Shown here: positions 4,882 to 41,003 of the stretch, piece by piece
How positions within the stretch are numbered: position 1 is the stretch's first letter
Layout of the letters: each line of letters starts with the position of its first letter
Assembly: GCA_937912225.1 (NCBI GenBank)
Contig: CALDOJ010000036.1
Coordinates: 31,191 to 95,190 of the forward strand
Direction of reading: 5' to 3'
DNA from: Candidatus Woesearchaeota archaeon
GTDB taxonomy: Archaea > Nanobdellota > Nanobdellia > Woesearchaeales > GCA-2686295
Length of the DNA: 64,000 bases
Translations under genes and position numbers: made by a program
Notes under the pieces: generated by a model
Told to the model about the DNA's origin: nothing
Database searches by the model: none
The model's input: only the letters and a program-made list of their open reading frames with translations

Positions 4882-4892
4882 GAAGTATAATC

Positions 4893-5420: not shown

Positions 5421-5462
5421 AAAATGAAAAAATTAATAAATGAATAAACAAAGGTGATACTT

Positions 5463-5831: not shown

Positions 5832-5839
5832 ATCTAAAA

Positions 5840-16300: not shown

Positions 16301-17742
16301 TCAGGATGAGAAAGTTTAGTCCAACCAAGATCTAAAAATTCTTTTTTAGTATAACCCAACATAGATTTACAAGAATTATTAACATTAATTATAGTCCCAT
16401 CAACTTTTGAAATAGTCATTAAAACAGGCGCAGATTCAAAAATATCTTTTAATTTTTCTTCACTTTCTCTCAAATCTTCTTCTGCTTTCTTACGTTCTGT
16501 TGTTATAGTAAAATAAACTGATATGCCTTCTTTAGAAGGGTAAACTCTAACATCATACCAATTAATATAAGGTTTCTTTCCAAAAAAGATTTCAAAAGTA
16601 ACTAATTTATTATTTTTTAAAGCATAAGTATATTTTTCTTCAAATATACTTCCCTTAGCTTCTTTAAACACTTCATTAAATATTTGTTTGCCTAAAATAT
16701 CTTTGCTCTTTTTATTTAAAAGTTCTTCAGATTTTTTATTAAAATAAGTAAATCTAAGGTCTTGATTTAGTGTGAAAAATGCATCACTAATGCTTTCCAC
16801 AGTTGTTCTAAGTTTCTCTTCACTTTCAATTAATTTTTTTCCTATTCTATTTTTTCTCAGAAAATTGTTGAAAAGACCACTTATTGTTGAAATTTCGTCC
16901 TTAACTTTTTTATCTATTTTCGTCTCAGATTCAACAATATCCAAACCTATAAATCCTTTTAATTCATTGTTCTCTGTTAAAGGTATGGTGATTAAAGATT
17001 TGATTTTTTGTAATTGAAAATGTTTTTTTTCTAATTTTGCTTCAGAAGGTAATTTTGCTACACTTTCAACAACAAAAGGTTTTAGTTTTAGTATTTGTTT
17101 ATTAAACCAAGGTAATTCTTTTTTTAAATTAATATTTTTTAAATTATTTATTTCTGGCTTCACTCCTTTTCTACACCATTCATGAGTATTTGACATAAAC
17201 TTTCCTGAAACAGAAAAAATATAACTTCTATCTGCATGAAAATAATTTCCAATAGTTTCTAAAGCTTTATTTATAACATCATCAACTAATTCTTTATCAT
17301 AATCAATAAAAGACATAGAAAGTTCATTTAAGATATTCTCAAACAACAATTTTTGCTTTAAAAGTTTTTCTGCGTTTTTTTGTTCAGTAATATCTCTAAG
17401 AATTGTTTGTAAAGCAATTACTTTACCATTTTTCTTTATTGGTCGACTTTTATACTCCATAAAAAAGTTTCCTTTCGGAGCAATTATTTCAACAGAACCA
17501 TGAGTTGGTTTACCTTTAGCTAAGTCAAGCATTTCTTTTGTAAGCTGAAGAACATGTTTTTTTACAACCAATTTATACGTGGACTCACCAATTAAATCTG
17601 ATTCTTTAAAGCCATATTTATTAACTGCTTTATTTGCATAAAGAACTCTACCTTTTAGATCTATAAATAGAATTATATCTGTAAAGTTATCAAACAGGTC
17701 TGATTTAAAATTACTAGTACTAATCTCTGGTTTTTTACCCAT
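13369..17742 (-). CDS. Giant cytoplasmic multi-PAS/PAC (+GAF-like) sensor protein without output domain
   Basis: Ten recurring PAC-end linkers D[IV]T-x-[KR]K-x-EE-L-x-SE counted by eye. A GAF-like segment near residues 150-290. One PAS carries C-x10-C-x2-C. The protein ends in a short coiled coil. Confidence 0.8.
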   Translation of the reverse strand: MGKKPEISTSNFKSDLFDNFTDIILFIDLKGRVLYANKAVNKYGFKESDLIGESTYKLVVKKHVLQLTKEMLDLAKGKPTHGSVEIIAPKGNFFMEYKSRPIKKNGKVIALQTILRDITEQKNAEKLLKQKLLFENILNELSMSFIDYDKELVDDVINKALETIGNYFHADRSYIFSVSGKFMSNTHEWCRKGVKPEINNLKNINLKKELPWFNKQILKLKPFVVESVAKLPSEAKLEKKHFQLQKIKSLITIPLTENNELKGFIGLDIVESETKIDKKVKDEISTISGLFNNFLRKNRIGKKLIESEEKLRTTVESISDAFFTLNQDLRFTYFNKKSEELLNKKSKDILGKQIFNEVFKEAKGSIFEEKYTYALKNNKLVTFEIFFGKKPYINWYDVRVYPSKEGISVYFTITTERKKAEEDLRESEEKLKDIFESAPVLMTISKVDGTIINVNNSCKSMLGYTKKEFLDLGWTKLSHPDDLKRIAVELKEKQLKGDSIINFVNRYKHKNGSYRTLEWQTTHAGKYIYAAAVDITEKKLSEEALKESESKLLKSQEIGLIGTWKLDIVNDILEWTEQNYKIFGVKQGASLNLSSFLATIHPDDKEYVAKKWTEGLKSGVYNLEHRIIVKGKVKWVKEKAKILFDKKGKAINAIGITQDITEKKLFETKLIESENKFRTVYQKIPVPYQSLDSNGDLLDVNPAWLNILGYKKQDVIGKNFSEFVSSDKLNDFKSNFSNFKKTGTACDILFSMKQKNGEHILVEYNGTAEYDENGVFQRTHCIFQDITSRELSKKKLKESEEKFKTLVNKVSDIIYSYDINGNIIFVSDNIGKYGYRVKEVLGKPLSNFVHPDDLKSVMKDFEMLWKTGKVTTTEFRLKLKNGKYIFAEESGQLIYENNKPVKVVGVIRDITERKQAEEELIVSEEQLMEAQEVASIGSWSFDVKTAQPIWSEQLFKIFGIDPKKGELNYKEHKKYIHPKDWNLFNDSVANTTKTGVGYNIEIRLVQPSGNIVWVNARCKTKKEKGVVVKLIGTTQDITDKKLAEEKLKESEEQFRNMIDTVPGVVYKCDMNWTFSFASFAFKEVTGFPVSDVINNKVRSYVSLMFEDDVTRITPVLNKALKKKDKYFFSEYKLKTKTGDIKWVRDSVRIVYNKNGVAKGYEGVLSDITNIKTAEGELRKEKEFSENILKALPEGMDIVDENLNILYMNEFFLNIFGKKAIGKKCYNLYKDNKKQCGDCPLKKPIKLGERRSIITTGVAGNRTYEINHVGMNLKGKKVIMEIFRDITDQKEAENLLEASEKKYKTIIEHSDDMFYIHDTNHKLSYVNPLSKRVFGYTPEEMMVKWTTLTTKNPINDEGLKLTVKALKTGVIQKPYILEFKKKNGEIFWAEIDEAPIKNSSGKIIGIAGALRDVTHRKKSDEALKRRTEELEKFHTYAINRELQMIKLKEEIKRLKKKQ

Positions 17743-17788: not shown

Positions 17789-18925
17789 TTATTCGTCGGA
17801 ACTTTTAAACATATCTTCTGCAGTTGTTGGTTTTGTTTCAGATTCTTGTTCTGTTTGTACAACTGGTTCAGCTTTAGCAGGTGCAGAGTCTATAGATGCA
17901 AGTTCTGCAGGTGCAGTTTGTTTAACAGGTTCTTCTTCAACAGACTTTTCTTCGCTTTCACCTTCAGCTTTTACTTCTTGCTTTTTTCCTCCAAACAAAC
18001 CAAAAAGTTTTTTCTTTTCTTCAGGCTTAGATTCTTCTTCACTGTTTCTTTCTTCAGCTTCTGATTCTTCCAAATTAACCTTATACTTCTTTTGTAATTT
18101 ATCAGTTAATTGTTTAAACATTAATTTTAAATCAGTTTTTGTATGTTTACTTCTTTCGTCTAATAATTTAATAACTGTGCCTGTATGTTTCTCAAAATCA
18201 TTAAATTTGTTAAGCAAATCAACGAATTCTTTTTTCTCAGCTTTCTGATCAGTTTGAACTCTCATTTTATCAAAATCAGCTTGCATTTTTTTGAACTCAC
18301 GATTTATATCTTTAACTTGTGAATCAAATTTATCAAATTCAGAAAACTTTTTCTCAACATCTAAAAAAATCGTTTCAACTCTATCAGCATGTCTTTCAAC
18401 AATTGACTCGACTTTTTTAAGATTAGCCAACTCATTTTTTATTTCTTCATGTAATTTTATTATTTGCTCAGTTCCTTTGTAAACATCCATTTGACCACGC
18501 ATACCTTTCAACTGAGACATGATATCCTTCATCAAAGATTCATTTCCTTCAATGTTGGCCTTAAGAGCTTCAATTTTCCCATCTGTTTTTCGAAGTTCAG
18601 TCATGAATACACTTGGTTGAACTGTTTCTACTTCATCAATGGCTTTTGTGGCTTTTACTTCTACTTTTGAAAAAGCTTGTTCTAAATCATTAAGCATACC
18701 TCTAATCTCACCCATTTGTTCAGTTACAATTCCAAATCTTTCAGTAGTGGATTTTCTTATCTCATTTAAAGAATCAATCTGACCTTTTATTTTAGCCAGT
18801 TCTATTTCTACTTGTCCACCAAGATTAGCACCTCTATTTTTAGGGGATGATTCTTCTATTTCCTGCTCAGCAGGATTCTCATCACCTTCTCCTATAGTAG
18901 GGCCTGATTTATTCCAAAAAGCCAT
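17789..18925 (-). CDS. Coiled-coil protein with acidic N- and C-terminal tails
   Basis: Long heptad-like Lys/Glu/Leu core and acidic low-complexity ends. Overlaps the upstream gene by 17 nt. No family recognised. Confidence 0.45.
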   Translation of the reverse strand: MAFWNKSGPTIGEGDENPAEQEIEESSPKNRGANLGGQVEIELAKIKGQIDSLNEIRKSTTERFGIVTEQMGEIRGMLNDLEQAFSKVEVKATKAIDEVETVQPSVFMTELRKTDGKIEALKANIEGNESLMKDIMSQLKGMRGQMDVYKGTEQIIKLHEEIKNELANLKKVESIVERHADRVETIFLDVEKKFSEFDKFDSQVKDINREFKKMQADFDKMRVQTDQKAEKKEFVDLLNKFNDFEKHTGTVIKLLDERSKHTKTDLKLMFKQLTDKLQKKYKVNLEESEAEERNSEEESKPEEKKKLFGLFGGKKQEVKAEGESEEKSVEEEPVKQTAPAELASIDSAPAKAEPVVQTEQESETKPTTAEDMFKSSDE

Positions 18926-19775
18926 TATCTACCTCTTTTTTTTCTTTTAATATGTTTGACATTATTCTCTTATCCCTTATCCCTTTAATGTTTTTCGCTA
19001 ACTCAGGTTGATGAAAAACAAATTCAATCCACATTGAAAAATCATTATCATAGTTTCGTGTATGAAACTCAAAATCCTCAGGGTTCATAAAACTTAAAGC
19101 AGTTATTAAATCTTGTATTGATGTTAAAAGCTTCCCACTTTTCAAACGAAAGAATTTTTCAGGATCTATTACTAGTTCAAGTTTTGGTTCTGTAACTGTT
19201 TCATCAACTTCACTCTGAGGCTCTACTTCTAGCTTATCAGATTCTGTGGTTGTGACTGTCTCTTCAGAAGTATTTTCTGGCTTAACTGGTTCATTCTGAG
19301 GCTCTACTTCTGGTACATAAGAAGTTTCCTTCTGAACACTAGAACTTTCAGTTCTTTGTGTACTAGTAGCTTCGTTACTATTTTCTTCTTTTATATCTAA
19401 ATCTTCTCTGTTTGAATTATTCTCTTTCATTCCTTCTTCAAAAGCTTGAGCCTTTTCTTCATTTAACTTTTCTTTAATCTTTCTTTCAACTTCTGCTTTA
19501 ATATCTACCAAAGGTAATCTTGATTCTTCAATTAATTCCTCTTCTGAAAATTTTAAAATATTCTTAATAACTTCATAGTCTTCTTGTTTTCGAGTATACT
19601 GAGCCCATCGTAATTTTGAATCAAGACTTCTAAGATGAAAGTCTGCTATTGAAGGATTATGACCTTCTTTTCTTAATTCAGTTATTCTTGACTTTAACTC
19701 TCGAACATGACTTCTCAAATCCTCTGTTAAAATTTCATTTTCTTTATCCGAAACTAATTGTTTATTTTTACTCAT
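18909..19775 (-). CDS. Acidic protein with C-terminal copy of the NDF-x-W[VI] ~70-aa domain
   Basis: C-terminus KFFRLKSGKLLTSIQDLITALSFMNPEDFEFHTRNYDNDFSMWIEFVFHQPELAKNI aligns with the domains in the two upstream genes. ATGA overlap. Confidence 0.5.
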   Translation of the reverse strand: MSKNKQLVSDKENEILTEDLRSHVRELKSRITELRKEGHNPSIADFHLRSLDSKLRWAQYTRKQEDYEVIKNILKFSEEELIEESRLPLVDIKAEVERKIKEKLNEEKAQAFEEGMKENNSNREDLDIKEENSNEATSTQRTESSSVQKETSYVPEVEPQNEPVKPENTSEETVTTTESDKLEVEPQSEVDETVTEPKLELVIDPEKFFRLKSGKLLTSIQDLITALSFMNPEDFEFHTRNYDNDFSMWIEFVFHQPELAKNIKGIRDKRIMSNILKEKKEVDNGFLE

Positions 19776-20602
19776 TTCAATTTCTCATTTACTTCATCAT
19801 TCAAGTCATTTATATCAGAATCAAGTGCTCTTACTTGTCCTTCTACAAAACTTGGTTTTCCAAAAAATAATTTTCCTAAAAATTTATTATTACTAATTTT
19901 TTCTTTTATTTTTTGAAAAAAGTTTTTCTTTGATTTTTCTTTTGAATGAACTGATTCTTTCTTTTTAACTTTCTTTTTCACTTCCTTTTTTACTTCTTCG
20001 TCTTCCTTCTTAATTTCTTCAGCTTCTTTTTCAACTTTTTTCTCAGATTTTTCCTCTCTTGCTTCTTTTGATTCATCAAGTGCTTTTTGAATTTCTACAA
20101 CTTCAGGACTATTGTCTTCTTCAATTGTTTTATTCAAATTAATTTCTGGCAATTTAGAATCAGAATCAACTTCTTTTTCTGGCTCAACCAAGGGTTTAAC
20201 TTCTTGTTCATCAGCTTCTTTATTTGAATCGTCAGAAGTTTCATCTTTGAACATATCATCAATTTTCTTATTAGATTCTTGTTCTGATTCAAAAGGTTCT
20301 TTCTTAACAGGTTCTGATTCTGTTTTCTGATTTTCATCCGGATTCTTAATTAAATCGTGAAAATAATCATCGATTAATTTAATCATAGAATCCTTATCTT
20401 TAGCTTTTTCTAAAACATCCGCCAGTTCATTATTTTTGAAAACACCTTTAACCCAAATAGCAAAATCATTCTTCTCTGAATTAACATGCAAAGCGAATTC
20501 TTCATCAGATCCTTTATCTAAAAAAACTCTAAATTCACCTATAGTTCTCAAAACTTCTCCATTGCCTAAATAAAAATATTCCTCTTGTTTCAAATTCCTC
20601 AC
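19772..20602 (-). CDS. Acidic/Lys-rich protein with N-terminal copy of the NDF-x-W[VI] ~70-aa domain
   Basis: N-terminus EEYFYLGNGEVLRTIGEFRVFLDKGSDEEFALHVNSEKNDFAIWVKGVFKNNELADVL. Start is ambiguous: GTG 20602 lies inside GAGGTGA, and TTG 20593 is an alternative. Confidence 0.5.
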   Translation of the reverse strand: MRNLKQEEYFYLGNGEVLRTIGEFRVFLDKGSDEEFALHVNSEKNDFAIWVKGVFKNNELADVLEKAKDKDSMIKLIDDYFHDLIKNPDENQKTESEPVKKEPFESEQESNKKIDDMFKDETSDDSNKEADEQEVKPLVEPEKEVDSDSKLPEINLNKTIEEDNSPEVVEIQKALDESKEAREEKSEKKVEKEAEEIKKEDEEVKKEVKKKVKKKESVHSKEKSKKNFFQKIKEKISNNKFLGKLFFGKPSFVEGQVRALDSDINDLNDEVNEKLK

Positions 20603-20639
20603 CTCTTATGTGGATTTATTATTATTTGTTGTTTTCTAA

Positions 20640-22829
20640 TTAACCCTCCTGTAAAACATTAATTAATTCATCTTTTGAGTTTGCTGTTTGCATTCTATCG
20701 GCTAATTGGTCGTTGTGAAATACTCCTCGAACCCAACTAGCAAAATCGTTTTTATCATTAGACACATATTGTTTAAAATCATCATCATTAGTTTCTCTTA
20801 AATACTCGACTAATTCAAGTACGGATTTTATTTCTTTACCGCTTTGTAATCTAAAATATTGATCGGATGAAATGTCTTTTTTAACAACAATTTTTTCTAA
20901 ATCAGCATCTAATTCCTCTTCTTCCTTTTTCTTTTCAGTTCGAGATTCAGAATTTTCAACAAGTTTAGTTTCTGTTTCTAAATGTTCTTCTAATTCTTTT
21001 TTATCTGAATTTTCCAATTGAACAGGCTCTTCTGCTTCTTCTTTTACAGCAGTTTCTGGTTTAACTTCTGATTCAGAATCATCATCAGCCATCGCAGCAA
21101 ACGCTTTTTCTTGTTCTGTTATAGGCTCTTTCTTTTCAGGTTCAACAGCTTCTGCAAGTTTTGCCTCCTCTTCCTTTTCCTCTTTTTCTTCTACAGCTTC
21201 AACTGCTTCTTTATCAGATGTTGAGTCAAACCACTTTTCAGATTCTAATAATTTTTTCTCTTCATCAGTTAACTCTGGAAGTTTCTGTTTTTTACTCCTT
21301 AAATCAATCAAATCTAACATTTGTTGTTTATCTGGTTTAACCATCATATGCTGTGCTAATTCTTTATCTCCAACAGCATCTTTAACCCAATCAGCAAACT
21401 CATTCTTTTCTTTATTTACATGCTGATCATAATCACTTTGTTTCATCGCAGATAACTCATCATATAATGCTTTCAAACTAATAACTAACATACCATTTAC
21501 TAAACTTAGAATTTTATCAGGCGACACTTCTTTTCTGAAAAGATCAACTTCAACTGTTTCACCATCAGCGCTGCCACTAGCAGCTTCAACTGCTTCAGCT
21601 TCTTCTCTTGATTGTTTTGCTGCGTTAATAGATGCTTTAAAGTCATCTTCAGATACAAGTTTCTTTTCTTTCTTCTTAGGAACTTTTCCAATTTTTTCCC
21701 AATTTTTCTTAACTCTAGGTCTTAATCCTTCTAAATATACTTCAACCATGTTAAAATTTCCAACTTTTACTTTATCTAAAGATAATTTTAGTTCCAATTT
21801 CATATCAAATACATCAATTTCTAACTCTTCTAATTGTTCAAGTTCATACACTAATTGATCAATTTCATCATTGTATTTGTTATACTTTTCAAGTTCTTCA
21901 TCTGTTAATCTTTGTACTGAATGAAGGATTGGTCTGAATGTTACGAAGTATGGTTGACCTCTATTATATGACGCGTTTTGAACCATTCCACTTCCAACAC
22001 TGGCTTTAACTAATGATTTTAAAACACTATCACCATACTTAGTTTTAATTCTATCTAAGTCTCCTTCATCTCTAGTTCTCATTTGAACTTCTGTGTTAAT
22101 GTTCGCTTTAATCTGACCTACGAAGTCGGCCAAAACCTGAGATACTAACATAATCCCTATTCCCCACTTACGAAACTCTCTACATCCTCTTTCAATCTGT
22201 ACGAATCCATCACCACTACCTCCAAACTTAGGTAGAATTCTGTGAATCTCATCATAAATAATCATGAGTTTTAATGGCTCACTTTCAGTAGGTCTTTCAT
22301 CAAAAATTTGTCTAATAGTATTAGCTACAACTAAATCAATTCCTTTCGGATCCAACTTATTCATAGCATAAATTTGAATTTCGCCAGGTTTTGCATTCTT
22401 CTGAATTTCAATTACTTCTCGAGGATTAGTTATTTGTTTAACATTTCCATTGAATGCTTTTGCATCTTTAGGTTTCATTCCAAATCCAGGATAATACTTC
22501 AACATTCCTTTTTCTTTACATGGACGCAACATTCCGCTCCATTGAGCTGTAGGGTCAAAGGCAATTACCGCTACATCTTTTAACAAACATTCTTCTATTA
22601 TTACTTGAGCTGAAATAGATTTTCCTCCACCAGTTGACCCTGCTACAATTGAATGAATCTTTAACTGGTCTAAATCAAAATAAGTTTTATGGTCTGTTTC
22701 AGCAATTTTTCCCCACCAACCACTTCTAGGTCCTGGTTTTGGTAACTGAGTATAATCAACTTTAAGATGGAACCTTTTATTGGAATCCATTTTTTTCCAG
22801 ATTATAAAAGCTATTAATGCAATTGTCAA
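20640..22829 (-). CDS. Membrane-associated HerA/FtsK/VirB4-clade P-loop ATPase with two C-terminal NDF-x-W[VI] domains
   Basis: Walker A AGSTGGGKS, Walker B LMIIYDEIH and MLVSQ following it. Acidic low-complexity spacer. Two repeat domains, at residues ~431-508 and ~655-729. The called TTG start leaves only a partial TM (see finding on the in-frame TAG). Confidence 0.6.
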   Translation of the reverse strand: MTIALIAFIIWKKMDSNKRFHLKVDYTQLPKPGPRSGWWGKIAETDHKTYFDLDQLKIHSIVAGSTGGGKSISAQVIIEECLLKDVAVIAFDPTAQWSGMLRPCKEKGMLKYYPGFGMKPKDAKAFNGNVKQITNPREVIEIQKNAKPGEIQIYAMNKLDPKGIDLVVANTIRQIFDERPTESEPLKLMIIYDEIHRILPKFGGSGDGFVQIERGCREFRKWGIGIMLVSQVLADFVGQIKANINTEVQMRTRDEGDLDRIKTKYGDSVLKSLVKASVGSGMVQNASYNRGQPYFVTFRPILHSVQRLTDEELEKYNKYNDEIDQLVYELEQLEELEIDVFDMKLELKLSLDKVKVGNFNMVEVYLEGLRPRVKKNWEKIGKVPKKKEKKLVSEDDFKASINAAKQSREEAEAVEAASGSADGETVEVDLFRKEVSPDKILSLVNGMLVISLKALYDELSAMKQSDYDQHVNKEKNEFADWVKDAVGDKELAQHMMVKPDKQQMLDLIDLRSKKQKLPELTDEEKKLLESEKWFDSTSDKEAVEAVEEKEEKEEEAKLAEAVEPEKKEPITEQEKAFAAMADDDSESEVKPETAVKEEAEEPVQLENSDKKELEEHLETETKLVENSESRTEKKKEEEELDADLEKIVVKKDISSDQYFRLQSGKEIKSVLELVEYLRETNDDDFKQYVSNDKNDFASWVRGVFHNDQLADRMQTANSKDELINVLQEG

Positions 22830-22850
22830 TAAAGAACCAATTATTAATCC

Positions 22851-24614
22851 CTATTGCCAGAAAAATAATCCAAAGAAATACAACTGCCAAAATGGTGTTA
22901 CTACTTCAAAAATTTCACTTGTTCCAGCGCTAAATCCCAAATAATTAGCAGTTACTCTAATAATATAAACTCCTCTGGGTGCATCTTTAGGAATCTTAAC
23001 TGTTTTTAATAATGAAAAAGATGTTTTCAATAACACATTAGTACTATAAGTCCATAAAGTTGTGTTACCAGTTTCATCTTGAATAGTATAAAATAATGAA
23101 ACAGGATATTCTTGATCAGATAATAAATTTTTCAAATCTGTTTTGAATTGTAAATCTTCATTTGGATGAACTTGTTTCTTAGAAGAATCTAATTCCATTA
23201 ACAAAGCTTGTACTGGAAGTTGATTTGCAGATATTAATTCAACAGTTAATGGAATAGATGCATTAAAATCTCCTGTTATTTCTATAGTTCCATTATAAGT
23301 TCCTAATTCTCCTCTTCCAAAAATAGTTGGAGTAATACTACCCCTTTCATTTGGAGCAACTAATAATTTATTCTTATCCAACTCAACTAAATTAGCAATA
23401 TCACCTGTTACTTTGAAAAATGCCTGGGTTGTTCCTTCTTTATAACTATAAACAACTATTTCTTCTTGTAAGAAGTTTCCTAATCTAAGTTTTCTATTAA
23501 TAGTATTAAGTGAAATAACTATATCTGTTCCTTCAACTCTTTTTGGTTGTTCTACTTGTGGTACGAGTGGCGCTTCACCAGGACCAACATCATCACCAGG
23601 ACCAACATCTCTACCAGGACCAATACCAGTAAAATCGTTAGGTGTTACTGCTTGAACCAATATGATATTATGAATTGTTGTTTGATTCTTTACAATTGAA
23701 ACATTGTTTGCATATACATCATAACCTGATTTTATTGCAAAAATAGTATATTGTCCTTCAGGAGCTGTAATATTATAAAAACCAAACGTGTCAGATGCAT
23801 CATTATAATTCGAAATATGTATAATTACATCAGATATTGGAACTCCTGCTTCAGTTGTTACAATTCCTGCAATATTTCCTGGATTTGGTAAATCACCTTC
23901 TCCTTCAGCACATATATCATATGGATCTGGAAAGAAATAATATCTTTGCTCTGTAGCATTTGGAATTGGTAATATCATTTGATAATTTAACTGTCTTCCG
24001 TTAAAACCATTAGTCCAATTTCCGAGTTTTGGTGCTACAAATATTAATTCTCCATTACCATCTTGAAGAACACCCAAAGTGAAATTTTCAATACTTCCAT
24101 CCCCTCCATTAAGTGTTGTGGCTGGAATAGTTATTGGAGTATTACCTATTTCAATTGTAATATTATCTTTAAAAGTATTTGTTCCTGATAACTTTGCAGT
24201 GAATGAATCATATTGGTCCATTCCTAAAAAAGTATCTAGCACCGTTAAATTAGCTGGCTGAATATTTACAAAATCTAATAATTGAGGCATAACTGTACTT
24301 GCATACACTTCATGATCAATATCTGTTTCTAAACAATCAAATAATAAATTTGCTTCTAAAGTTTCCAATCCTTCTAAATCATAAAATGCTTCATTTTGAA
24401 ATCCTGGAACTCTTACTGCATAACCATATACTCCTGACCATAAAAAAGCAGGTAAACTCATATCAATATTTACTTCATAAATTACTCCTCCTTTCCCTGA
24501 AAAAGTATTAGTTGCCCAACCAATAAACTTGCTTGCAAAAACCAATCCGAATATAGCAAGAGCTACTAATAAAACTAATAATACTGTTTGTGCAGCTTTC
24601 TCTACATGTTTCAT
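22851..24614 (-). CDS. Secreted/anchored beta-rich envelope protein (carboxypeptidase-regulatory-like + Ig-like modules)
   Basis: N-terminal TM/signal TVLLVLLVALAIFGLVFA. GIVTTEAGVPISDVIIHISN...GQYTIFAIKSGYD. GPGRDVGPGDDVGPGEAP linker. Short hydrophobic C-terminus ends at TAG. Confidence 0.55.
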   Translation of the reverse strand: MKHVEKAAQTVLLVLLVALAIFGLVFASKFIGWATNTFSGKGGVIYEVNIDMSLPAFLWSGVYGYAVRVPGFQNEAFYDLEGLETLEANLLFDCLETDIDHEVYASTVMPQLLDFVNIQPANLTVLDTFLGMDQYDSFTAKLSGTNTFKDNITIEIGNTPITIPATTLNGGDGSIENFTLGVLQDGNGELIFVAPKLGNWTNGFNGRQLNYQMILPIPNATEQRYYFFPDPYDICAEGEGDLPNPGNIAGIVTTEAGVPISDVIIHISNYNDASDTFGFYNITAPEGQYTIFAIKSGYDVYANNVSIVKNQTTIHNIILVQAVTPNDFTGIGPGRDVGPGDDVGPGEAPLVPQVEQPKRVEGTDIVISLNTINRKLRLGNFLQEEIVVYSYKEGTTQAFFKVTGDIANLVELDKNKLLVAPNERGSITPTIFGRGELGTYNGTIEITGDFNASIPLTVELISANQLPVQALLMELDSSKKQVHPNEDLQFKTDLKNLLSDQEYPVSLFYTIQDETGNTTLWTYSTNVLLKTSFSLLKTVKIPKDAPRGVYIIRVTANYLGFSAGTSEIFEVVTPFWQLYFFGLFFWQ

Positions 24615-27553
24615 GATGCAATCCTCATTTGTAAAGTTTTTATTTTTTCAAACAACTCGGTTTTATAATCTTCATCTAATCTCTTATACACTTCTTCTAG
24701 CTGATGATAATAGTATCTTGCTTTTCCAATATTATCAGCTTTTATATTATTCTCAATATCTGAAACTAATTTCTGTGAATAACCATGATCCAACTTAGTA
24801 CATAAATTCCTAATTTTTTGATAAACTTCATTTTTTGAAGGAGTAGATAATTTTTCATAATACAATTTAATCTCTCTATAAATAAAATGAGCTTTATCAA
24901 GGTCATGAACTTCTAAATTATCAAGAGCATCATTTATCAATAAGTTAATAGTATGAATTTTCTTATCGCCAAATAAAACATAGTAAAAGAATCTCATCTT
25001 ATCTATTCTAATATGACTATGCCCTGCATATACTAATACTAAAACCATTATTAAAACTATCAAATAACCTTTTTTATCCATATTAACATTAAAGTCAAAT
25101 ATGGAATTTCCAGTTATAGAAGTTACCGCTTTAGTATATGAATCTTCAAACAAGACTGTTTGTGCTTTATCAATGTTCTCCAAATCTATTTGTTCATCAA
25201 AATAATAAATTATTTTTTGAGGGTTATCAAATTCAATTAATGGATCTTTCTCCAAAATTTTATGATTTGTTATTATTGTTAAATCATCGGTTGTCTCTGC
25301 TAATTCTTTTGGTATAGATTCTACAACTCTTAATTTATATGTGCTATTCACATATTTTAATTCTTTAACCACTAAAGTAATAGTTTTCTTTGTTCCATCA
25401 AAGTATTCTAATTCAACATTTCTGGCAGTTGTTGATATAGTTGCTTTTGATTGAGTTAATTTACTTGCTTCAAAAAATTTCTCTTTATCTAAATATTTTT
25501 TTATAGTTGAATATTTATCAGATACTTCTTTTAATTCAGGATCTCGAATATATTTAATAAACGCTTTATTTTCTAACACATTCACATTAACAATTATAGA
25601 ATTATAAGTATCAGATATTTTAGTTTCTAATGTTTGTATTTTATCTTCTTTTTCTTTTTCAGATAAAACATTATTGTAAGTTGCATCATTTATATCTCTA
25701 TAAGCTCTTTGTATTGTTACAATTGCACTTTTGATATTTTTCTCTATATCTAATACATCTATTACCCGTCGTTCATGAAGTCCTTTAGTTGATAAAGTAT
25801 CAATTATTGCGTATAATTCATCAGTAAATTCTGTTTCTGAAAAAGTTGTTTTTACGTCTATTACTTCATCAATTATTTTAAAAGTTCTTTCTTCTGTTGC
25901 TTTTGAATTCTTATCCGAATCTTCACATTCAATTTTCCATTTATAATCTTTATAATCTAATCCTGTCAATGAAAATATTTGTTCTGTGTTATCTGAAACT
26001 ATTTTTGTTCCTTTCTTTGTATACCAACTTTCATCCTTCTCTGCAGTATACAACACACAAGTTGTATCTCCTTGATCAGATACTTTAAATTTAACATCTA
26101 TACTTTTCGAATTAAATTCTTGTTTATCTGCAGGTGAAATAAGTTCAATACTTGGCGCAGTTACATCTTTTCCTTCTATTTCTGCAAGGTAAGTAATATT
26201 TTCCCTTAACCAGATTTCATCATAGAGAACTTCATAATTAGATTTTAAAACCGTTAATCTGTAAGTGCCTCTTGAAATATAAAATGTGTATTGACCTTTA
26301 CTATTTGTTATTCCTTCTCTATTTGCTAGTTCGATTCTTGCTCCAGATATAACACTTCCAGAATTTATATCTTTAACAGTTACAGCCAATTCCAATACAT
26401 TCTTAACAGTTATTGTTGTATTAAGAGACTTAGAATTTCCTTCTTCGTCAGTAACTGTTAACTTTTCAATGTATGAACCAGAATTTTCATAAGACATATT
26501 TATAGTATCATTAGTTTTAGTTGTTCCATCGCTTAAAGTCCAAAGATAAGTATATTCACCAATTCCGCCATTTACATAAGCTTCTAGTTCTGTTGGTTCA
26601 TCAACATCAACAGATTTATCTCCAACAACAGAAATTGTTATACTATTTTCAACTTCAAAACTTATTACATCAGTTAAAGTTGTATTTTGATATTCTAACT
26701 CTGTATTTGCAGCATAAGTTCCTACTTCTGTTGTGTAAGTCATTGATTCTGTTCTTGGAAATGTTCCATTTGTTATGGTTATTGTTTCTCCTAATGTGAA
26801 CCATCCTCCGCTTGAAGTTCCTATTTCAATTGTCATATTTGAACCATTTAATGCATTTATTGTGAAAGTTCCTGCTTCTCCTAAGCTGTAAGTTTCTTTA
26901 TTCAAACTAATGTTCAAGAATGGTGTTTCAATTTCTTCTTCAACGGTTTCATTCTCTATTGTAAATATTCTATTGCCACTAATATTTGCATTCCCAACAC
27001 TATCTTGACAACTTATATTCCAGTAATGCATTCCACTATCTGCAGAAATATTAACTATTTTTGAAGTTCCATTAATTGCAGTTATTGCTTGTATTGCATC
27101 ATCTAAAGTTAATATACAATTCATGCTTGTTGCAAAGTTATCTGTTGCTACGAAGGTTACATTCGTTAAATTAGTTAAGTTTGCATTATTGATTGGATTC
27201 TCTAAAACAATAATTGGTGCTGAGAGATCAATATTTATTGTTCGCTCAATAATACTTTCGCTGTTGTTCTCATCTGAGCAGTTAATATACCATTCATGAA
27301 CTCCTTCGGTCAAGGTTTCAGTAAATGTATTACTGCTTTCTGCTGATTTACTTTGTTCTTCTATTTGGTCTATAAATAAACTACAAGTGGTAGAATTAGT
27401 GTAATTAGTGAGTGTGAATGTAAAGTTAACATTTGAAGTATTATACACTGCATTATCTACAGGTACAATATCAGACATTGTTGAAGAAATTATTTGAAGA
27501 CTTAAAACTAACATGACCATCAACATAATTAATTTTGCTGATTTACTTCTCAT
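24611..27553 (-). CDS. Large surface protein (repeated Ig-like modules, PKD-like, carboxypeptidase-regulatory-like), TM anchor and helical cytoplasmic tail
   Basis: Signal peptide KLIMLMVMLVLSLQIISS. Repeats with a C...W[YN]I.C.D pattern. PKD-like EYTYLWTLSDGTTK...LTVTDEEGNS. TM GYLIVLIMVLVLVYAG. ~130-aa helical tail. Confidence 0.6.
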   Translation of the reverse strand: MRSKSAKLIMLMVMLVLSLQIISSTMSDIVPVDNAVYNTSNVNFTFTLTNYTNSTTCSLFIDQIEEQSKSAESSNTFTETLTEGVHEWYINCSDENNSESIIERTINIDLSAPIIVLENPINNANLTNLTNVTFVATDNFATSMNCILTLDDAIQAITAINGTSKIVNISADSGMHYWNISCQDSVGNANISGNRIFTIENETVEEEIETPFLNISLNKETYSLGEAGTFTINALNGSNMTIEIGTSSGGWFTLGETITITNGTFPRTESMTYTTEVGTYAANTELEYQNTTLTDVISFEVENSITISVVGDKSVDVDEPTELEAYVNGGIGEYTYLWTLSDGTTKTNDTINMSYENSGSYIEKLTVTDEEGNSKSLNTTITVKNVLELAVTVKDINSGSVISGARIELANREGITNSKGQYTFYISRGTYRLTVLKSNYEVLYDEIWLRENITYLAEIEGKDVTAPSIELISPADKQEFNSKSIDVKFKVSDQGDTTCVLYTAEKDESWYTKKGTKIVSDNTEQIFSLTGLDYKDYKWKIECEDSDKNSKATEERTFKIIDEVIDVKTTFSETEFTDELYAIIDTLSTKGLHERRVIDVLDIEKNIKSAIVTIQRAYRDINDATYNNVLSEKEKEDKIQTLETKISDTYNSIIVNVNVLENKAFIKYIRDPELKEVSDKYSTIKKYLDKEKFFEASKLTQSKATISTTARNVELEYFDGTKKTITLVVKELKYVNSTYKLRVVESIPKELAETTDDLTIITNHKILEKDPLIEFDNPQKIIYYFDEQIDLENIDKAQTVLFEDSYTKAVTSITGNSIFDFNVNMDKKGYLIVLIMVLVLVYAGHSHIRIDKMRFFYYVLFGDKKIHTINLLINDALDNLEVHDLDKAHFIYREIKLYYEKLSTPSKNEVYQKIRNLCTKLDHGYSQKLVSDIENNIKADNIGKARYYYHQLEEVYKRLDEDYKTELFEKIKTLQMRIAS

Positions 27554-27785
27554 TTTCTAGTCTCCCAATTAGCTTTTTTAATTCTTCTATCATCTGTTGA
27601 TTAGTTTGTTCTTGCTTTAATTTTGCAATTTTAGAAGTAACTGGTTCAGTAAAACTGAAGCATTTTGATCTAACAACAGAACGTATTTCTTCACTTAAAT
27701 CCATATAGTGATTTTTATCTGCTAGAATTCTTAGTTCTCTAACTAGTGTTGAGGGCATTCGTACGCTTACAACTGTATCTGTCAT
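27543..27785 (-). CDS. Ribbon-helix-helix DNA-binding protein with coiled-coil tail
   Basis: VVSVRMPSTLVRELRILADKNHYMDLSEEIRSVVR fits strand-helix-helix. Overlaps the next gene by 11 nt. Confidence 0.6.
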   Translation of the reverse strand: MTDTVVSVRMPSTLVRELRILADKNHYMDLSEEIRSVVRSKCFSFTEPVTSKIAKLKQEQTNQQMIEELKKLIGRLENEK

Positions 27786-27790
27786 CGTTG

Positions 27791-27946
27791 TTATTTGTTC
27801 TCTAGCACATACTGTCTTGAAAATTCTCTTATAGCCTCAGATCTAGAACTAAACACATTTTTTTTTACAAGGGTATCTAGAATTACAATAGTGTCGTCTG
27901 GTAATCTCACGTTTACTACTTCTATGTTTTTCTGAGGTTTCTGCAT
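27791..27946 (-). CDS. Small ribbon-helix-helix (CopG-like) protein, not in the supplied ORF track
   Basis: My own translation: MQKPQKNIEVVNVRLPDDTIVILDTLVKKNVFSSRSEAIREFSRQYVLENK. ATG at 27944-27946, TAA at 27791-27793. Ends 5 nt before the next RHH gene. Confidence 0.65.
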   Translation of the reverse strand: MQKPQKNIEVVNVRLPDDTIVILDTLVKKNVFSSRSEAIREFSRQYVLENK

Positions 27947-27952
27947 GGTCAC

Positions 27953-28019
27953 GTATGTTACTTGTAGTTTATTTGTATGTTATCTGTAAGTGTCTCTGTA
28001 GACCGAAATGACACTTGTA
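27953..28019. promoter_or_regulatory. Candidate RHH operator: direct repeats over the divergent promoter region
   Basis: GTATGTTACTTGTAG (27953-27967) and GTATGTTATCTGTAA (27975-27989) lie 22 bp apart. Extra YTGTA copies at 27996-28000 and 28015-28019. They flank a weak minus-strand TATA-like CAAATAAA about 24 nt from the ATG at 27946. Confidence 0.35.
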
Positions 28020-28111
28020 TGACAATTAACTGACATTAGTAGTATATAAATCTTTTGATTTCGTCTTTTGAAAGGAGAAACTATAAAAAACCAACAATAT
28101 TTCAAACAAAA

Positions 28112-28561
28112 ATGAAAGAATACGAAGTCCTAAGAAAAAAATATTCGCTGCCAAACCTAAAAGAATTAGAACAAGACTTTGGCTTTGAAGAAATAGAAGA
28201 ACAAAAATATTTATTACGAGCAATTGTTAAGAAAATAATAGATACAATTGAAACACACGCTAAATTGTTAGAAGAAATAATTAATCCAGAAGCAAGCATT
28301 AGTAATATGAACGAAGCAAGCTCTTTTAATGAAGAAGAAAAACCATTAATTCTTAAAAATTATAAAAAATTATTATTTTATCATCGAAGTCATATGCAAA
28401 TAAATTTAAATTATGATGAAAAAAGTTTTGCAGATTTTTTGAATACATTTTATGAAGATTGGCACAAAATAAAAGTTGATTTGAACACAATCATTGGCAA
28501 GATGAAAAACTCTTGGAAAAAAGACGTGAAAACAAAAATAGAATTAGGATATTTTGGATAA
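28112..28561 (+). CDS. Hypothetical helical protein
   Basis: First ATG in the ORF; the TTG at 28055 is upstream of the predicted TATA-to-TSS distance (TATATAAA at ~28044). No family recognised. Confidence 0.4.
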   Translation: MKEYEVLRKKYSLPNLKELEQDFGFEEIEEQKYLLRAIVKKIIDTIETHAKLLEEIINPEASISNMNEASSFNEEEKPLILKNYKKLLFYHRSHMQINLNYDEKSFADFLNTFYEDWHKIKVDLNTIIGKMKNSWKKDVKTKIELGYFG

Positions 28562-28588
28562 AAAAATAAACATGAGGGTAATGAAAAA

Positions 28589-29215
28589 ATGAATTTATTG
28601 ATATTAGGACCACAAGCTTCCGGAAAAGGAACACAAGCAAAAAGAATTGCTAAAGAACTAGGCATACCACACATCTCAACAGGAGATATTTTTAGAGACA
28701 ATATTGAAAGAGGAACAGATTTAGGGAAGAAAGTTCTTATGATTCAAGGCGGAGAACTAGTTCCGGATGAATTAACAAATAGCATCGTTAAAAATAGACT
28801 AAAACAAGAAGATTGTGCAAATGGATACATATTGGACGGGTATCCAAGAAATCTTGTACAAGCAGAATACTTAAACAGTATTAGCCAAATAGATGCAGTT
28901 ATTGATTTAGAAGTTCCAACAAAAGTAATAATGGAAAGAATTACTAGCAGAAGAGCTTGTGGAGATTGTAAAGCAGATTATAATATAATTTATATGAAAC
29001 CAAAACAAGAAGGTATCTGTGATAAATGTGAAGGAGAATTAATTCAACGAAAAGACGATACTCCAGGACCAATTAAAAAAAGATTAGATATTTATTATTC
29101 CCAAACACAACCATTAATTAGCTTCTATAAAGAACAAGGAGTCTCTCTTAAAGAAATTGATGGAGTAGGAACACCTGGCGAGATTCTTGATAGAATAATG
29201 AATGTTTTGCGTTAA
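28589..29215 (+). CDS. adk: Adenylate kinase, long bacterial-type with Cys4 zinc lid
   Basis: P-loop GPQASGKGTQ, LVPDELT, GYILDGYPRN. Lid CGDC...CDKC. Confidence 0.9.
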   Translation: MNLLILGPQASGKGTQAKRIAKELGIPHISTGDIFRDNIERGTDLGKKVLMIQGGELVPDELTNSIVKNRLKQEDCANGYILDGYPRNLVQAEYLNSISQIDAVIDLEVPTKVIMERITSRRACGDCKADYNIIYMKPKQEGICDKCEGELIQRKDDTPGPIKKRLDIYYSQTQPLISFYKEQGVSLKEIDGVGTPGEILDRIMNVLR

Positions 29216-29736
29216 AGCATACGATTATACAATTGTTCTTTTACTTTTTTTATTTCTTGTTTTCCAGTATGAATACTATTAGTAAATAATCCTAAAACCA
29301 TGCCAAGACTAAAACCTGCACCAATAATCATGCTTGAAGCGTGATAAATTTCACCAAACATTTCTTCAAACCTATAACCAGAAAAAGCAACTGCTGCAAC
29401 CCCGAATATGGTTGTCGCCATTAAACCATTACCAATGGGTTCAGGCATTTTCCAAATAGGACCTGTTTGAAAATAACCAAATTCATCTTGAACATTTCTT
29501 AAATTAGAAATCTGAGAATTATATTCGTTCCTTTTCTTTTTATTAAACCACAAAGAATAATTAAAATTTGTTTCAATTTCATCAAAAACACCATCTATTA
29601 TTTGTTTATCTGCAGGATCTTTTTCTGTACGATTATAATTATAAGTATTGATTAAATTTTGGACAGCCGATTCTAAATCAGGAAAGAAACTTTTCTCGTA
29701 TTTTTTTTGTTTACTCACGAAACTGCTCCCAAACAC
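29212..29736 (-). CDS. Hypothetical membrane protein (two C-terminal TM helices)
   Basis: Hydrophobic segments GLMATTIFGVAAVAFSG and SSMIIGAGFSLGMVLGLF. Stop overlaps the adk stop at a TTAA. Confidence 0.4.
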   Translation of the reverse strand: MFGSSFVSKQKKYEKSFFPDLESAVQNLINTYNYNRTEKDPADKQIIDGVFDEIETNFNYSLWFNKKKRNEYNSQISNLRNVQDEFGYFQTGPIWKMPEPIGNGLMATTIFGVAAVAFSGYRFEEMFGEIYHASSMIIGAGFSLGMVLGLFTNSIHTGKQEIKKVKEQLYNRML

Positions 29737-29768
29737 CTCTTATGGATTAATTTCAGATTTATTATTAT

Positions 29769-30743
29769 TTAAAGTTTTCTAGTTAATAATTCTTTAATAA
29801 CATAAGTTGCATAACTTCCTTTAGGTAAGTTAAAAGAAACATTTACTTTGAACATGCCTTTGTTTAAGTCATCTTCGACCATCGTTCCTACTTTTAAATC
29901 TTTTAATTCAATAAATAAATCTCGATCATTACCTTCGCAACTTAAATCAGGTAAACTAGGAATTATAAAATCTCTTTCAGAAATATTTTCTTCTTCTAAA
30001 ATTTCTTGAACTATTTGTTCAATTTTATCATTTGTATAATCAGTTCCAAAACCAACTATTGGAATTTTCTCGTTGTCCATTATATTAAGTTCTAAATATT
30101 TTGTAATTGTTTTATTAAAAATAAAACTTTGATATGCGTGAATAAATAATAACAAAATTTTTTTAGGTATTTTTCTTAAAGCTCCAACATAATCATTCAT
30201 ATTTTTTTTCAGATGTTCTTTTGTTTTTTGTTCATAATCGCCATTATTCAAAAGAATTTCGCTAACAGCTTTTTTGAAATCTTTTTTGAGAATACACCGT
30301 CCAATATTCACATTGTTATTTGAAAAACGTTGCTGATCAAAACAATTTGGAATTAAATCTAAATGTTTAATAGAAGTATTTTTTTCTAAGTTTCTTATTA
30401 CAATTTCAAAATAATTACCTTTCAAATGACCTAAAGAAAGAGGTTCTTTTGAAAAACCCATAAAAGTTAATTTCAAATCTTTAAGTTCATAATCATCAAG
30501 TTTATGTTTAAGTCTTTCAATTGAAATATACTGTTCAGTTACTGCATGTTTATCTTTATTACCAGCATAAGCAATTTTTGTTCTTCGAATATTTAAGTTA
30601 TTACAAATTGCTTGAATTGCTCTTTCAGTCGTATAATTCTTTTTCTCGAGCAAAAAAATTGAATAATCTCCTTCTTCTGACAGTTCATATCCAGGAATTT
30701 CTCTTACAAAAAAGTCTTCGGGAATTTGTTTTAACTTATACAT
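29769..30743 (-). CDS. truD: tRNA pseudouridine synthase TruD/Pus7 family
   Basis: IPEDFFVREI and AGNKDKHAVTEQ motifs. Start moved to the internal ATG (MYKLKQ) because the called extension runs toward the tRNA gene. Confidence 0.75.
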   Translation of the reverse strand: MYKLKQIPEDFFVREIPGYELSEEGDYSIFLLEKKNYTTERAIQAICNNLNIRRTKIAYAGNKDKHAVTEQYISIERLKHKLDDYELKDLKLTFMGFSKEPLSLGHLKGNYFEIVIRNLEKNTSIKHLDLIPNCFDQQRFSNNNVNIGRCILKKDFKKAVSEILLNNGDYEQKTKEHLKKNMNDYVGALRKIPKKILLLFIHAYQSFIFNKTITKYLELNIMDNEKIPIVGFGTDYTNDKIEQIVQEILEEENISERDFIIPSLPDLSCEGNDRDLFIELKDLKVGTMVEDDLNKGMFKVNVSFNLPKGSYATYVIKELLTRKL

Positions 30744-30803
30744 ATAAAACAAGAAATGAAAAAGATTTAAAAAACTTCCACTTATTCTCAACACTAAACA
30801 AAT

Positions 30804-40991: not shown

Positions 40992-41003
40992 ATAATCATA
41001 CAC

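Follow-up and report, generated by a model that had tools for sequence, protein, structure and literature searches.

A short-form SPEARE-family ATPase gene, interrupted by a nonsense codon, in a conserved gene cluster of a Woesearchaeota archaeon

The stretch of DNA analyzed here, which we call the window, comprises 64,000 nucleotides (nt) of a Candidatus Woesearchaeota archaeon (assembly GCA_937912225.1, contig CALDOJ010000036.1, positions 31,191 to 95,190 of the forward strand). Its minus strand carries, from 27952 to 17789, eight co-directional open reading frames (ORFs). In order, these encode two small ribbon-helix-helix (RHH) proteins (RHH1 and the probable RHH2), a 980-amino acid (aa) surface protein (S980), a 587-aa ectodomain (ORF4), a 729-aa ATPase (ORF5), two acidic proteins (D276 and D288), and a coiled-coil protein (CC378). 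A first-pass annotation, made by eye from the sequence, had described this packed array, with ATGA overlaps at 24611–24614 and 19772–19775 and overlaps of 11 nt at 27543–27553 and 17 nt at 18909–18925, and all of these are exact. Gaps of 5 nt and 37 nt separate RHH1 from RHH2 and the ATPase from D276, respectively, and a gap of 46 nt downstream of CC378 contains a TATA-like element preceding the next gene. Read by frame and by alignment, the real gene count of the cluster is seven, because ORF4 and ORF5 are halves of one gene. This gene belongs, by homology, to the SPEARE family.

ORF4 (22851–24614) and ORF5 (20640–22829) share one frame and are separated by a single TAG codon. The reconstructed protein has 1324 aa and consists of a signal or anchor segment (aa 10–28), an ectodomain of ~550 aa with a CarboxypepD_reg module recognized by Pfam, a transmembrane (TM) helix, a HerA-type ATPase, a helical bundle, and two OrfY/DUF5752-like domains. 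Each of the nearest relatives of the ATPase is a single ~1250-aa protein with its own CarboxypepD_reg module, and in the alignment the TAG position is occupied by Trp or Leu within the only internal TM helix of these fused relatives. Relatives were collected by scanning an ATPase alignment over a one-genome-per-species collection, which gave at least 535 confirmed stretches; conservation counts come from the best 80 loci of these, nearly all from Woesearchaeota or Nanoarchaeota metagenome-assembled genomes (MAGs). Ectodomain and ATPase are fused in 62 of 69 complete ORFs. In the other seven, which are short paralogs (775–815 aa), the ectodomain is reduced to its membrane-proximal 220 aa and a single OrfY-like domain remains, with signal peptide, TM helix, and ATPase retained.

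An intact strain gives the closest comparison. A homolog search with D288 returned only three near-identical proteins, one of which led to this strain (locus L085, on a contig of GCA_041294365.1). Its DNA is 99.5% identical to that of the window, has TGG at the codon in question, and encodes one gene of 1312 aa. Eight single-nucleotide polymorphisms (SNPs) separate the two across the cluster, the W588 nonsense change among them, and there are no further lesions. Because the SNPs are so few, the TGG-to-TAG mutation is, on this comparison, very recent. Two in-frame length differences also occur: 36 nt at ~23620, in a GPGxDV-repeat linker of the ectodomain (ORF4), and 96 nt at ~19434, in the acidic linker of D288 (288 versus 320 aa). 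By frame, intact strain, and fused relatives, ORF4 and ORF5 thus make up a single gene in two halves. Ancestrally, one polypeptide comprised what the first-pass annotation had taken for separate partners, the 587-aa secreted protein and the 729-aa ATPase. The same annotation had put the ATPase in the membrane; as it stands, the window ORF has no complete TM helix, and the ectodomain ORF finishes with half of one.

Seventeen contigs from four independent samples (ENA, Logan, and JGI sources) carry the split form, and the four split-form loci retrieved are 100% identical to the window. An assembly error was ruled out by this identity across four independent samples, though all are clonal. A sense codon (pyrrolysine or recoding) was likewise ruled out, as TAG ends seven of the 49 window genes and L085 has TGG. 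A second in-frame TAG junction occurs elsewhere in the window (39573–42293), where the TAG that ends gatD is followed immediately, in frame, by the first codon of gatE; this is probably coincidental and due to tight packing.

The nonsense allele could mean that the system is broken in this strain, that is, that the gene is a fresh pseudogene in which ectodomain and motor are uncoupled. We give this about an even chance, and it fits with either of the functions considered below for the intact system. The TAG lies within the only TM helix, with 13 and 19 hydrophobic residues on its two sides, the codon is an ordinary stop here, and ORF5 would start at a TTG or, as picked by gene callers, at an ATG past the helix, leaving the ATPase soluble. 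Against decay stand the small number of SNPs relative to the intact strain, the lack of other lesions in the cluster, and the presence of the allele in all four samples; split halves, read-through, or re-initiation could also retain function.

The family assignment comes from a comparison with the 569 aa at the C-terminus of the SPEARE protein from Ca. Nha. antarcticus (supplementary Fig. S18 of PMC6642349), typed from a supplement rendered by optical character recognition, so that it may contain a few incorrect residues. Over 364 aa, ORF5 shares 45% identity with this sequence (BLASTP, E 9e-111). The match extends from just past the TM helix into the helical bundle, and so beyond the P-loop. 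In addition, the last 150 aa of the ectodomain ORF align ahead of the SPEARE TM helix (E 2e-8), including a PFW..FG motif. Because of this intracellular and juxtamembrane homology, the window gene is, as judged from alignment, a short-ectodomain, Woesearchaeota-type member of the SPEARE family. The SPEARE sequence ends after the bundle, and the OrfY tail is therefore an addition in the Woesearchaeota-type branch. We hold the anatomy, the SPEARE-family assignment, and the split, taken together, with high confidence.

Hamm et al. (2019) placed most of the SPEARE protein outside the cytoplasm, with a TM helix close to the C-terminus, and took its conserved intracellular region for a type III restriction enzyme; similar sequences were reported from Woesearchaeota, Aenigmarchaeota, Micrarchaeota, and Altiarchaeales (PMC6642349). 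A later re-annotation by Reva et al. (2023) made this domain a VirB4/TraG-like ATPase followed by a coiled coil, in an architecture of Sec signal, Ig-like domains, TM, ATPase, and coiled coil, and proposed a 'straw' like a type IV secretion system (T4SS) (PMC10266531). A SPEARE role in host contact, attachment or invasion, translocation, or pore formation is a proposal of these studies (PMC6642349, PMC10266531). We found a Pfam cross-match to ResIII in eight of 18 relatives of the ATPase; this cross-match is behind the original 'restriction enzyme' label and had misled the first annotation. The first-pass annotation had recognized no known relative of the cluster. Table S3 of PMC6642349, which notes SPEARE in Woesearchaeota, lists a protein of the MAG 'Euryarchaeota archaeon SM23-78', the same MAG as one of our loci (L007). 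The family itself, including its occurrence in Woesearchaeota-type genomes, is already in the literature, and this is not a new kind of system.

A family-wide phmmer search with the core (ORF5 aa 1–430) against 1.84 billion representatives gave at least 375 family representatives at E≤1e-30. Among the 150 matches listed, the ATPase lies towards the C-terminal end, N-terminal parts range from ~70 to ~5600 aa, and 71 members are 1500–6253 aa long; two of the listed members are named by organism, both Woesearchaeota. The true giants (2000–6253 aa) were found among paralogs in other genomes, one with a Peptidase_S8 domain, and to call the 980-aa and 587-aa products giant, as had been done, was an overstatement.

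The AlphaFold2 (AF2) model of ORF5 (mean pLDDT 85) consists of the core (aa 30–305), a bundle (310–420), an OrfY-like domain (445–530), a disordered acidic linker (535–647), and a second OrfY-like domain (650–729). Pfam assigns DUF87/HerA (36 bits, cut-off 23.2) and DUF5752 to the ORF, and the Walker A and B motifs picked out by eye are present. Fold-match values were highest for Sulfolobus HerA (25.2), followed by the DptH C-domain (23.9), VirB4 (22.7), defense HerAs (~21), TrwB (17.8), FtsK (16.6), EccC (16.5), and STIV2 B204 (15.3). Foldseek concurred, and a family profile run against PDB sequences matched HerA proteins only. The ATPase thus has the RecA-like core, Walker motifs, HerA-type motifs, and best structural match of the HerA clade. 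Neither a HAS barrel nor a NurA partner was found, the AF2 model having only the TM-derived helix and ~25 residues ahead of the core, and no protein of the eight matches the NurA, Mre11, or Rad50 families above cut-off (Rad50/SMC matches of CC378 are at coiled-coil level). Models of other motors fail: CedD scores 22.8 bits versus a cut-off of 600, TraD 20 versus 366, and FtsK_SpoIIIE 17.2 versus 24, with a single TM rather than a multi-pass region. Profile and structure searches left the cluster outside Ced, classical T4SS, FtsK, viral packaging, and known defense systems. With a link of only ~25 residues between the TM helix and the first core strand, and no HAS barrel, a hexamer, if formed as in every relative, would sit directly against the membrane.

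The cluster is conserved well beyond this strain. Partners were sought with phmmer, using the window proteins against six-frame ORFs of the 80 loci, and denominators are the loci long enough to include the position of the partner. The order RHH, RHH, S980, ectodomain-TM-ATPase, small OrfY/DUF5752-domain proteins, and coiled-coil protein is maintained in nearly all 80 loci, which answers the question of gene-order conservation raised at first pass. RHH1 stands at the head of the cluster in 50 of 53 loci and RHH2 directly after it, also in 50 of 53. S980 is immediately upstream of the ATPase gene in 55 of 58, one to three small OrfY-domain proteins lie downstream of the ATPase in 58 of 71, and CC378 is kept in 45 of 55. 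On gene order, the cluster is a real and strongly conserved unit. A second cluster type, with a longer S980-like protein (1350–1410 aa) and a short ATPase paralog (~780 aa), was seen at four loci (L076, L078, L079, and L084), and at L076 and L078 short and long ATPase forms are both present, a few kb apart.

The flanks recur as well. The divergent genes upstream, encoding a 168-aa protein without a Pfam match and adenylate kinase (window 28055–30794), are found in about one-third of loci (for example, L007–L009, L013, L021, and L023), and TruD is upstream in nine. These recurring adk and truD neighbors point to a stable chromosomal position. Recurrent flanking gene families had no informative Pfam match, except for a KaiC-like ATPase in seven loci. 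In 19 loci (for example, L010 9856–10449), the gene after CC378, on the same strand, encodes a protein of ~197 aa without a Pfam match; this protein is absent from the window, where a PAS protein occupies that place. Giant proteins downstream of the cluster in some loci have only the Ig-like repeat type in common with S980; lacking its anchor module, they were dropped as core members.

Table 1. Features of the cluster and their positions in the window.
Feature	Position	Strand	Basis or remark
SPEARE-family gene interrupted by nonsense codon	20640..24614	-	shared frame; intact strain; fused relatives
CarboxypepD_reg module of ectodomain	23658-23873	-	Pfam, 587-aa ORF
TM helix region cut by TAG	22797..22895	-	PFWQLYFFGLFFWQ before and GLIIGSLLTIALIAFIIW after the stop; aligns with single TM of fused relatives
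In-frame TAG	22851..22853	-	TGG to TAG; G to A at 22852; Trp588 of intact allele
RecA-like ATPase core, ORF5 aa 30-305	21915..22742	-	
Walker A, AGSTGGGKS (aa 63)	22617-22643	-	
Walker B, LMIIYDEIH (aa 188)	22242-22268	-	
Helical bundle, ORF5 aa 310-420	21570..21902	-	AF2 model; also in SPEARE (alignment to aa 366)
OrfY/DUF5752-like domain 1 of ATPase tail	21270..21503	-	Pfam, hidden Markov model (HMM), AF2 model
Acidic disordered linker of ATPase tail	20889-21227	-	
OrfY/DUF5752-like domain 2 of ATPase tail	20643..20873	-	
S980, candidate type I surface glycoprotein	24611..27553	-	Pfam, family profile, hydropathy
S980 TM helix (aa 829-844)	25022-25069	-	
S980 helical cytoplasmic tail (136 aa)	24614-25021	-	
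D276, acidic (pI 4.9)	19772..20602	-	N-terminal OrfY-like domain 20351-20590; E/K-rich linker; C-terminal FLGKLFFGK hydrophobic patch
D288, acidic (pI 4.9)	18909..19775	-	N-terminal helical region; acidic linker; C-terminal OrfY-like domain 18930-19169
CC378, coiled-coil protein with acidic tail	17789..18925	-	
Lysine-flanked hydrophobic motif of CC378 tail	17981-18016	-	KKKLFGLFGGKK
RHH1, 53-aa ribbon-helix-helix (CopG-type) protein	27791..27952	-	RHH_1 E 9.8e-7; alternative ATG start 27946
RHH2, 80-aa probable second RHH protein with C-terminal helix	27543..27785	-	RHH_1 14.6 bits, below cut-off
Promoter/leader with putative RHH operator	27952..28050	-	sequence and repeat counts
TATA-like TTTATATA	28043-28050	-	
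Three TGTCA at 11-nt steps	starts 28035, 28024, 28013	-	
TACA	28019, 28000, 27988, 27977, 27966	-	

The modules attributed to S980 at first pass are all there: a signal-like N-terminus, Ig-like repeats (aa ~30–210 and ~467–560), a PKD domain (310–382), a carboxypeptidase-regulatory-like module (~385–460), one TM helix, and a helical tail; a membrane-proximal domain is also present. The PKD domain comes from Pfam (E 1.5e-9) and the Ig-like and carboxypeptidase-regulatory-like modules from the family profile. Membrane topology, here and for the SPEARE-like gene and its relatives, was read from hydropathy. A J-domain in the S980 tail was dismissed, the matches being weak (E 0.03–0.9) and without an HPD motif.

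D276 and D288 share with the ATPase tail an OrfY-like domain of ~70 aa, as had been noticed. The window has four copies, two in the ATPase tail and one in each acidic protein. An HMM of this domain found 196 copies in 149 ORFs of related loci, and one copy was modeled by AF2 with a pLDDT of 95.6. Membership in the DUF5752/OrfY family is indicated by sequence (PF19027) and by fold (PDB 4cso): 32 of 34 copies match Pfam DUF5752 at E≤0.1, and D288 gives a weak match. Stand-alone DUF5752/OrfY-like proteins of 85–135 aa are common in Woesearchaeota, Pacearchaeota, and Altiarchaeales, with some labeled Margulisbacteria, Spirochaetes, and Patescibacteria. A surface protein of 1480 aa at another locus (L039 16392–20834) combines a TM helix and a cytoplasmic coiled coil with an OrfY/DUF5752-like domain at its C-terminus, so that these archaea also employ the domain in other membrane proteins. 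It recurs in small acidic proteins as well as at the cytoplasmic ends of membrane proteins, from which we infer that it may serve as a docking module. We found no publication on DUF5752, OrfY, or 4CSO in the library searched.

The lysine-flanked hydrophobic patch in the CC378 tail occurs in 33 of 57 CC378 homologs, versus 7 expected from shuffled tails in a composition-based test, and many of these read KKGFFAKLFGKK. The motif is not enriched in the D proteins. It resembles, by analogy of pattern, the C-terminal membrane-targeting sequence of MinD (KKGFLKRLFGG). The family profile of CC378 found no relatives in the PDB, the protein has none in Pfam, and its matches to SMC, Rad50, and Baculo_PEP_C in Pfam and NCBIfam were rejected as coiled-coil noise. 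A CC378 homolog is the next gene after a giant paralog in all three sampled loci: L087 22596–23489 (giant of 4862 aa, E 4e-32), L088 24805–25707 (6253 aa, E 5e-39), and L089 21583–23064 (5175 aa, E 4e-12). These three loci have no RHH pair and no called neighbor of the size and type of S980; only the downstream genes were compared directly with the window proteins. As a CC378 homolog follows all three giants, motor plus CC378 looks like a conserved core.

The two RHH genes recognized at first pass differ in support. RHH1 exceeds the Pfam cut-off for RHH_1 (29 versus 20.5 bits), and RHH2, with its weak match, is a probable RHH protein. Among NCBIfam models for RHH1, CdrS (22 versus 100 bits), aCcr1 (18 versus 60 bits), and NikR are all far under cut-off. 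The leader ahead of RHH1 has a phased array of short repeats: three or more TACA at exact 11-nt steps occur at this sole site in the 64-kb window (expected 0.03). In 55 regions upstream of RHH1 homologs (loci within L006–L084), TACA-TACA spacing of 11 nt occurs 92 times versus 0.5 expected (maximum 4 in 200 shuffles), and spacings of 22 and 33 nt occur 45 and 13 times, respectively. At least two TACA are in phase (steps of 10–12 nt) in 43 of the 55 regions. The array is strand-specific, the reverse motif occurring at 11 nt only four times in these regions, and a coding control had no 11-nt TACA spacing. The repeat unit is approximately wwT(G/A)T(C/A)(A/T)TACAww. Phased direct repeats beside an RHH gene are a classic operator layout (CopG, omega, MetJ, and ParG types). 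The TACA array is probably the operator of the RHH proteins, and autoregulation, by RHH1, RHH2, or both, is somewhat favored.

The best explanation overall, in our view, is a SPEARE-like envelope device, to which we assign a little less than an even chance. In this explanation the ATPase would form a HerA-like hexameric ring under the membrane, held by its TM helices, and the ATPase ectodomains and S980 would make up an outward-facing contact structure. CC378 would be tethered to the membrane through its MinD-like amphipathic motif and act as a scaffold, and the OrfY-like modules would be docking units that link the motor tail with the small acidic proteins. When cells are in contact, ATP hydrolysis would move a polymer across or at the envelope, with DNA somewhat favored over protein as cargo because the nearest folds are DNA pumps. 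The RHH pair would repress the operon through the phased 11-bp TACA repeats between TATA box and start codon. The polymer passage envisaged here matches proposals made for nanohaloarchaeal SPEARE proteins (PMC6642349, PMC10266531).

A translocation or contact function by itself, argued from analogy, we consider possible, with the balance somewhat against it. In its favor, the closest folds belong to pumps acting on polymers at membranes, the adhesin-like ectodomain is hugely variable in size, and the cluster is unlike a defense island or mobile element. The surface translocation or contact apparatus suggested at first pass agrees to this extent with the published SPEARE hypotheses, translocation and host dependence being the parts that are still inference. 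Several points weigh against such a function. The canonical SQR arginine of HerA and FtsK is SQV in the SPEARE-like ATPase family. After signal cleavage there is one TM helix per subunit, which gives six per hexamer, or 12 if S980 joins at 1:1, and this is few for a channel. Any translocated substrate, a docking role of the OrfY domain, and RHH binding at the TACA repeats are all putative. The cluster is found nearly universally, apparently in single copy, and in synteny with housekeeping genes (adk and truD), which fits an envelope or division role as well. Finally, the nonsense lineage was assembled from four independent samples, so that the intact fusion is dispensable at least for a time, or else the halves still work.

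A more far-reaching version would have the motor, CC378, S980 as co-receptor, and the OrfY-domain adaptors as a distinct DPANN-wide envelope-spanning machine, neither T4SS, Ced, nor type VII secretion system, which builds or powers a cytoplasmic bridge for exchange of DNA or protein with hosts. The ectodomain would be host-specific and the RHH/TACA circuit would switch the machine on at contact. We regard this version as improbable.

The main rival is a housekeeping role, unlikely in our estimate, in which the motor, the membrane-bound coiled-coil protein, and the surface proteins would organize an S-layer-like coat, or the chromosome at division as a membrane-anchored FtsK analogue, with no host interaction. 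The breadth of the collection (at least 535 stretches), the rigid gene order, and the synteny with adenylate kinase and TruD in about one-third of loci all suit such a role. With its many N-glycosylation sequons and its C-terminal anchor, S980 resembles archaeal S-layer glycoproteins, and the MinD-like motif of CC378 and the nearest folds, which are DNA translocases, point the same way. The best NCBIfam matches of RHH1 include the cell-division regulators CdrS and aCcr1, but these lie far below their cut-offs, and no division gene recurs in the flanks. Ectodomain size, moreover, varies ~20-fold among the listed members, with giant adhesin- or protease-bearing paralogs, which is typical of interaction proteins, and a lineage with a membrane-uncoupled motor persists.

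Anti-phage defense around a HerA-type ATPase (SIR2-HerA, DUF4297-HerA, or MADS-like) is very improbable. The ATPase core does match PADLOC mad8 (E 3.4e-13) and HerA (E 1.2e-12), and defense HerA structures are among its top fold matches; but no other cluster protein matches PADLOC, bar LmuB at coiled-coil level (E 7e-4), and the cluster proteins include no nuclease, SIR2, DUF4297, or other effector. The synteny is rigid and lineage-wide, not patchy as in defense islands, and the ATPase is fused to a TM helix and ectodomain. A mobile element, either conjugative T4SS/Ced-like DNA transfer or a provirus packaging module, is hardly credible: RHH proteins do also act as relaxosome accessories, and there are weak matches to TrwB_AAD_bind, T4SS-DNA_transf, TraD, CedD, and a PHROG terminase, but all of these score far under curated cut-offs, the eight proteins match no integrase, relaxase, capsid, VirB6, VirB3, or pilin family (the first-pass annotation had likewise seen no pilin, capsid, integrase, or T4SS/Ced partner), 2.9 million viral contigs hold no relative, GC content is 0.27–0.32 within a range of 0.26–0.35 for the rest of the window, and the chromosomal neighbors are conserved.

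The leading candidates for the means by which DPANN symbionts attach to and tap their hosts are the SPEARE proteins, whose mechanism is disputed (restriction enzyme or T4SS-like 'straw') and which have been discussed so far only as isolated giant genes in Nanohaloarchaeota. The locus described here has the same motor in a compact form of ~1300 aa, in Woesearchaeota-type archaea. The short form comes in a fixed operon with a second surface protein, candidate docking-domain proteins, and a dedicated RHH pair with a recognizable putative operator, a manageable set of components with which to approach structure prediction, pull-downs, and heterologous expression; the natural nonsense allele separates ectodomain from motor. 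None of the papers we found describes the short form with its OrfY tail, the fixed seven-gene operon and its partners, the pairing with CC378 that extends to giants (three sampled), the MinD-like motif of CC378, the putative RHH/TACA operator, the HerA-first structural placement, or the natural nonsense allele, and Makarova et al. (2014) has nothing on this cluster.

The window also encodes archaeal GatD/GatE, Cdc48, and PPDK. Within 5840–10584 and 13369–17742 lie a histidine kinase with dCache sensors, a dCache-HAMP protein, and a very large PAS-repeat protein, which is more signaling than is usually assumed for a small DPANN genome. The PAS-repeat protein (1457 aa, 13369–17742) has 28 SNPs relative to L085, mostly in two patches (15911–16049 and 17138–17481), as compared to eight in the 10 kb of the adjoining cluster. 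About 21 of them fall in aa 565–611, and the SNPs of the two patches are mostly non-synonymous. From this distribution, the patches look like a recombined or hypervariable segment.

Compared with known systems, the window gene is closest to SPEARE, having the same topology and order: a signal peptide, an adhesion-type ectodomain, one TM helix near the C-terminus, a P-loop ATPase, and a helical bundle. The reconstructed gene and its relatives have this topology, and in the window allele the TM helix is interrupted by TAG. However, the protein has 1324 aa rather than 3000–9400, thus falling short of giant size (>3000 aa), and Pfam gives it only CarboxypepD_reg and Ig-like modules, with none of the serine-protease, laminin-G, or toxin-like regions of SPEARE. 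It also has two OrfY/DUF5752-like tail domains, which are absent from the Nha. antarcticus protein. The neighbors differ as well, with an RHH pair, S980, OrfY-domain proteins, and CC378 here and a second VirB4/TraG ATPase following in nanohaloarchaea, whose giants have a coiled coil described at the tip (PMC10266531).

In comparison to HerA of the Sulfolobus and Thermococcus HerA-NurA systems, the ATPase lacks the HAS barrel and has no NurA, Mre11, or Rad50 neighbors, is anchored in the membrane with an ectodomain in its intact form, has SQV in place of SQR, and is 15–20% identical. Unlike VirB4/VirD4 (TrwB and TcpA) and Ced, it lacks both a CagE/VirB4 N-terminal domain and an all-alpha domain and is not accompanied by other T4SS or Ced components. 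FtsK/SpoIIIE and EssC/EccC are similarly membrane-anchored motors of FtsK-HerA type, moving DNA (FtsK) or proteins (EssC), and the C-terminal DNA-recognition domain of FtsK is formally analogous to the extra C-terminal modules of the ATPase here. OrfY of Thermoproteus tenax (PDB 4cso) is a stand-alone protein labeled a transcription factor by its depositors, whereas the OrfY-like module here is joined to a membrane motor, to acidic proteins, and, at L039, to the tail of a surface protein. Lastly, the regulatory head of the cluster is like the CopG, omega, MetJ, and ParG systems in that its opening genes encode small RHH proteins and its promoter or leader is overlapped by direct repeats spaced by one helical turn, and is distinct from them in having two different tandem RHH genes and putative sites built on an 11-bp unit specific to this lineage.

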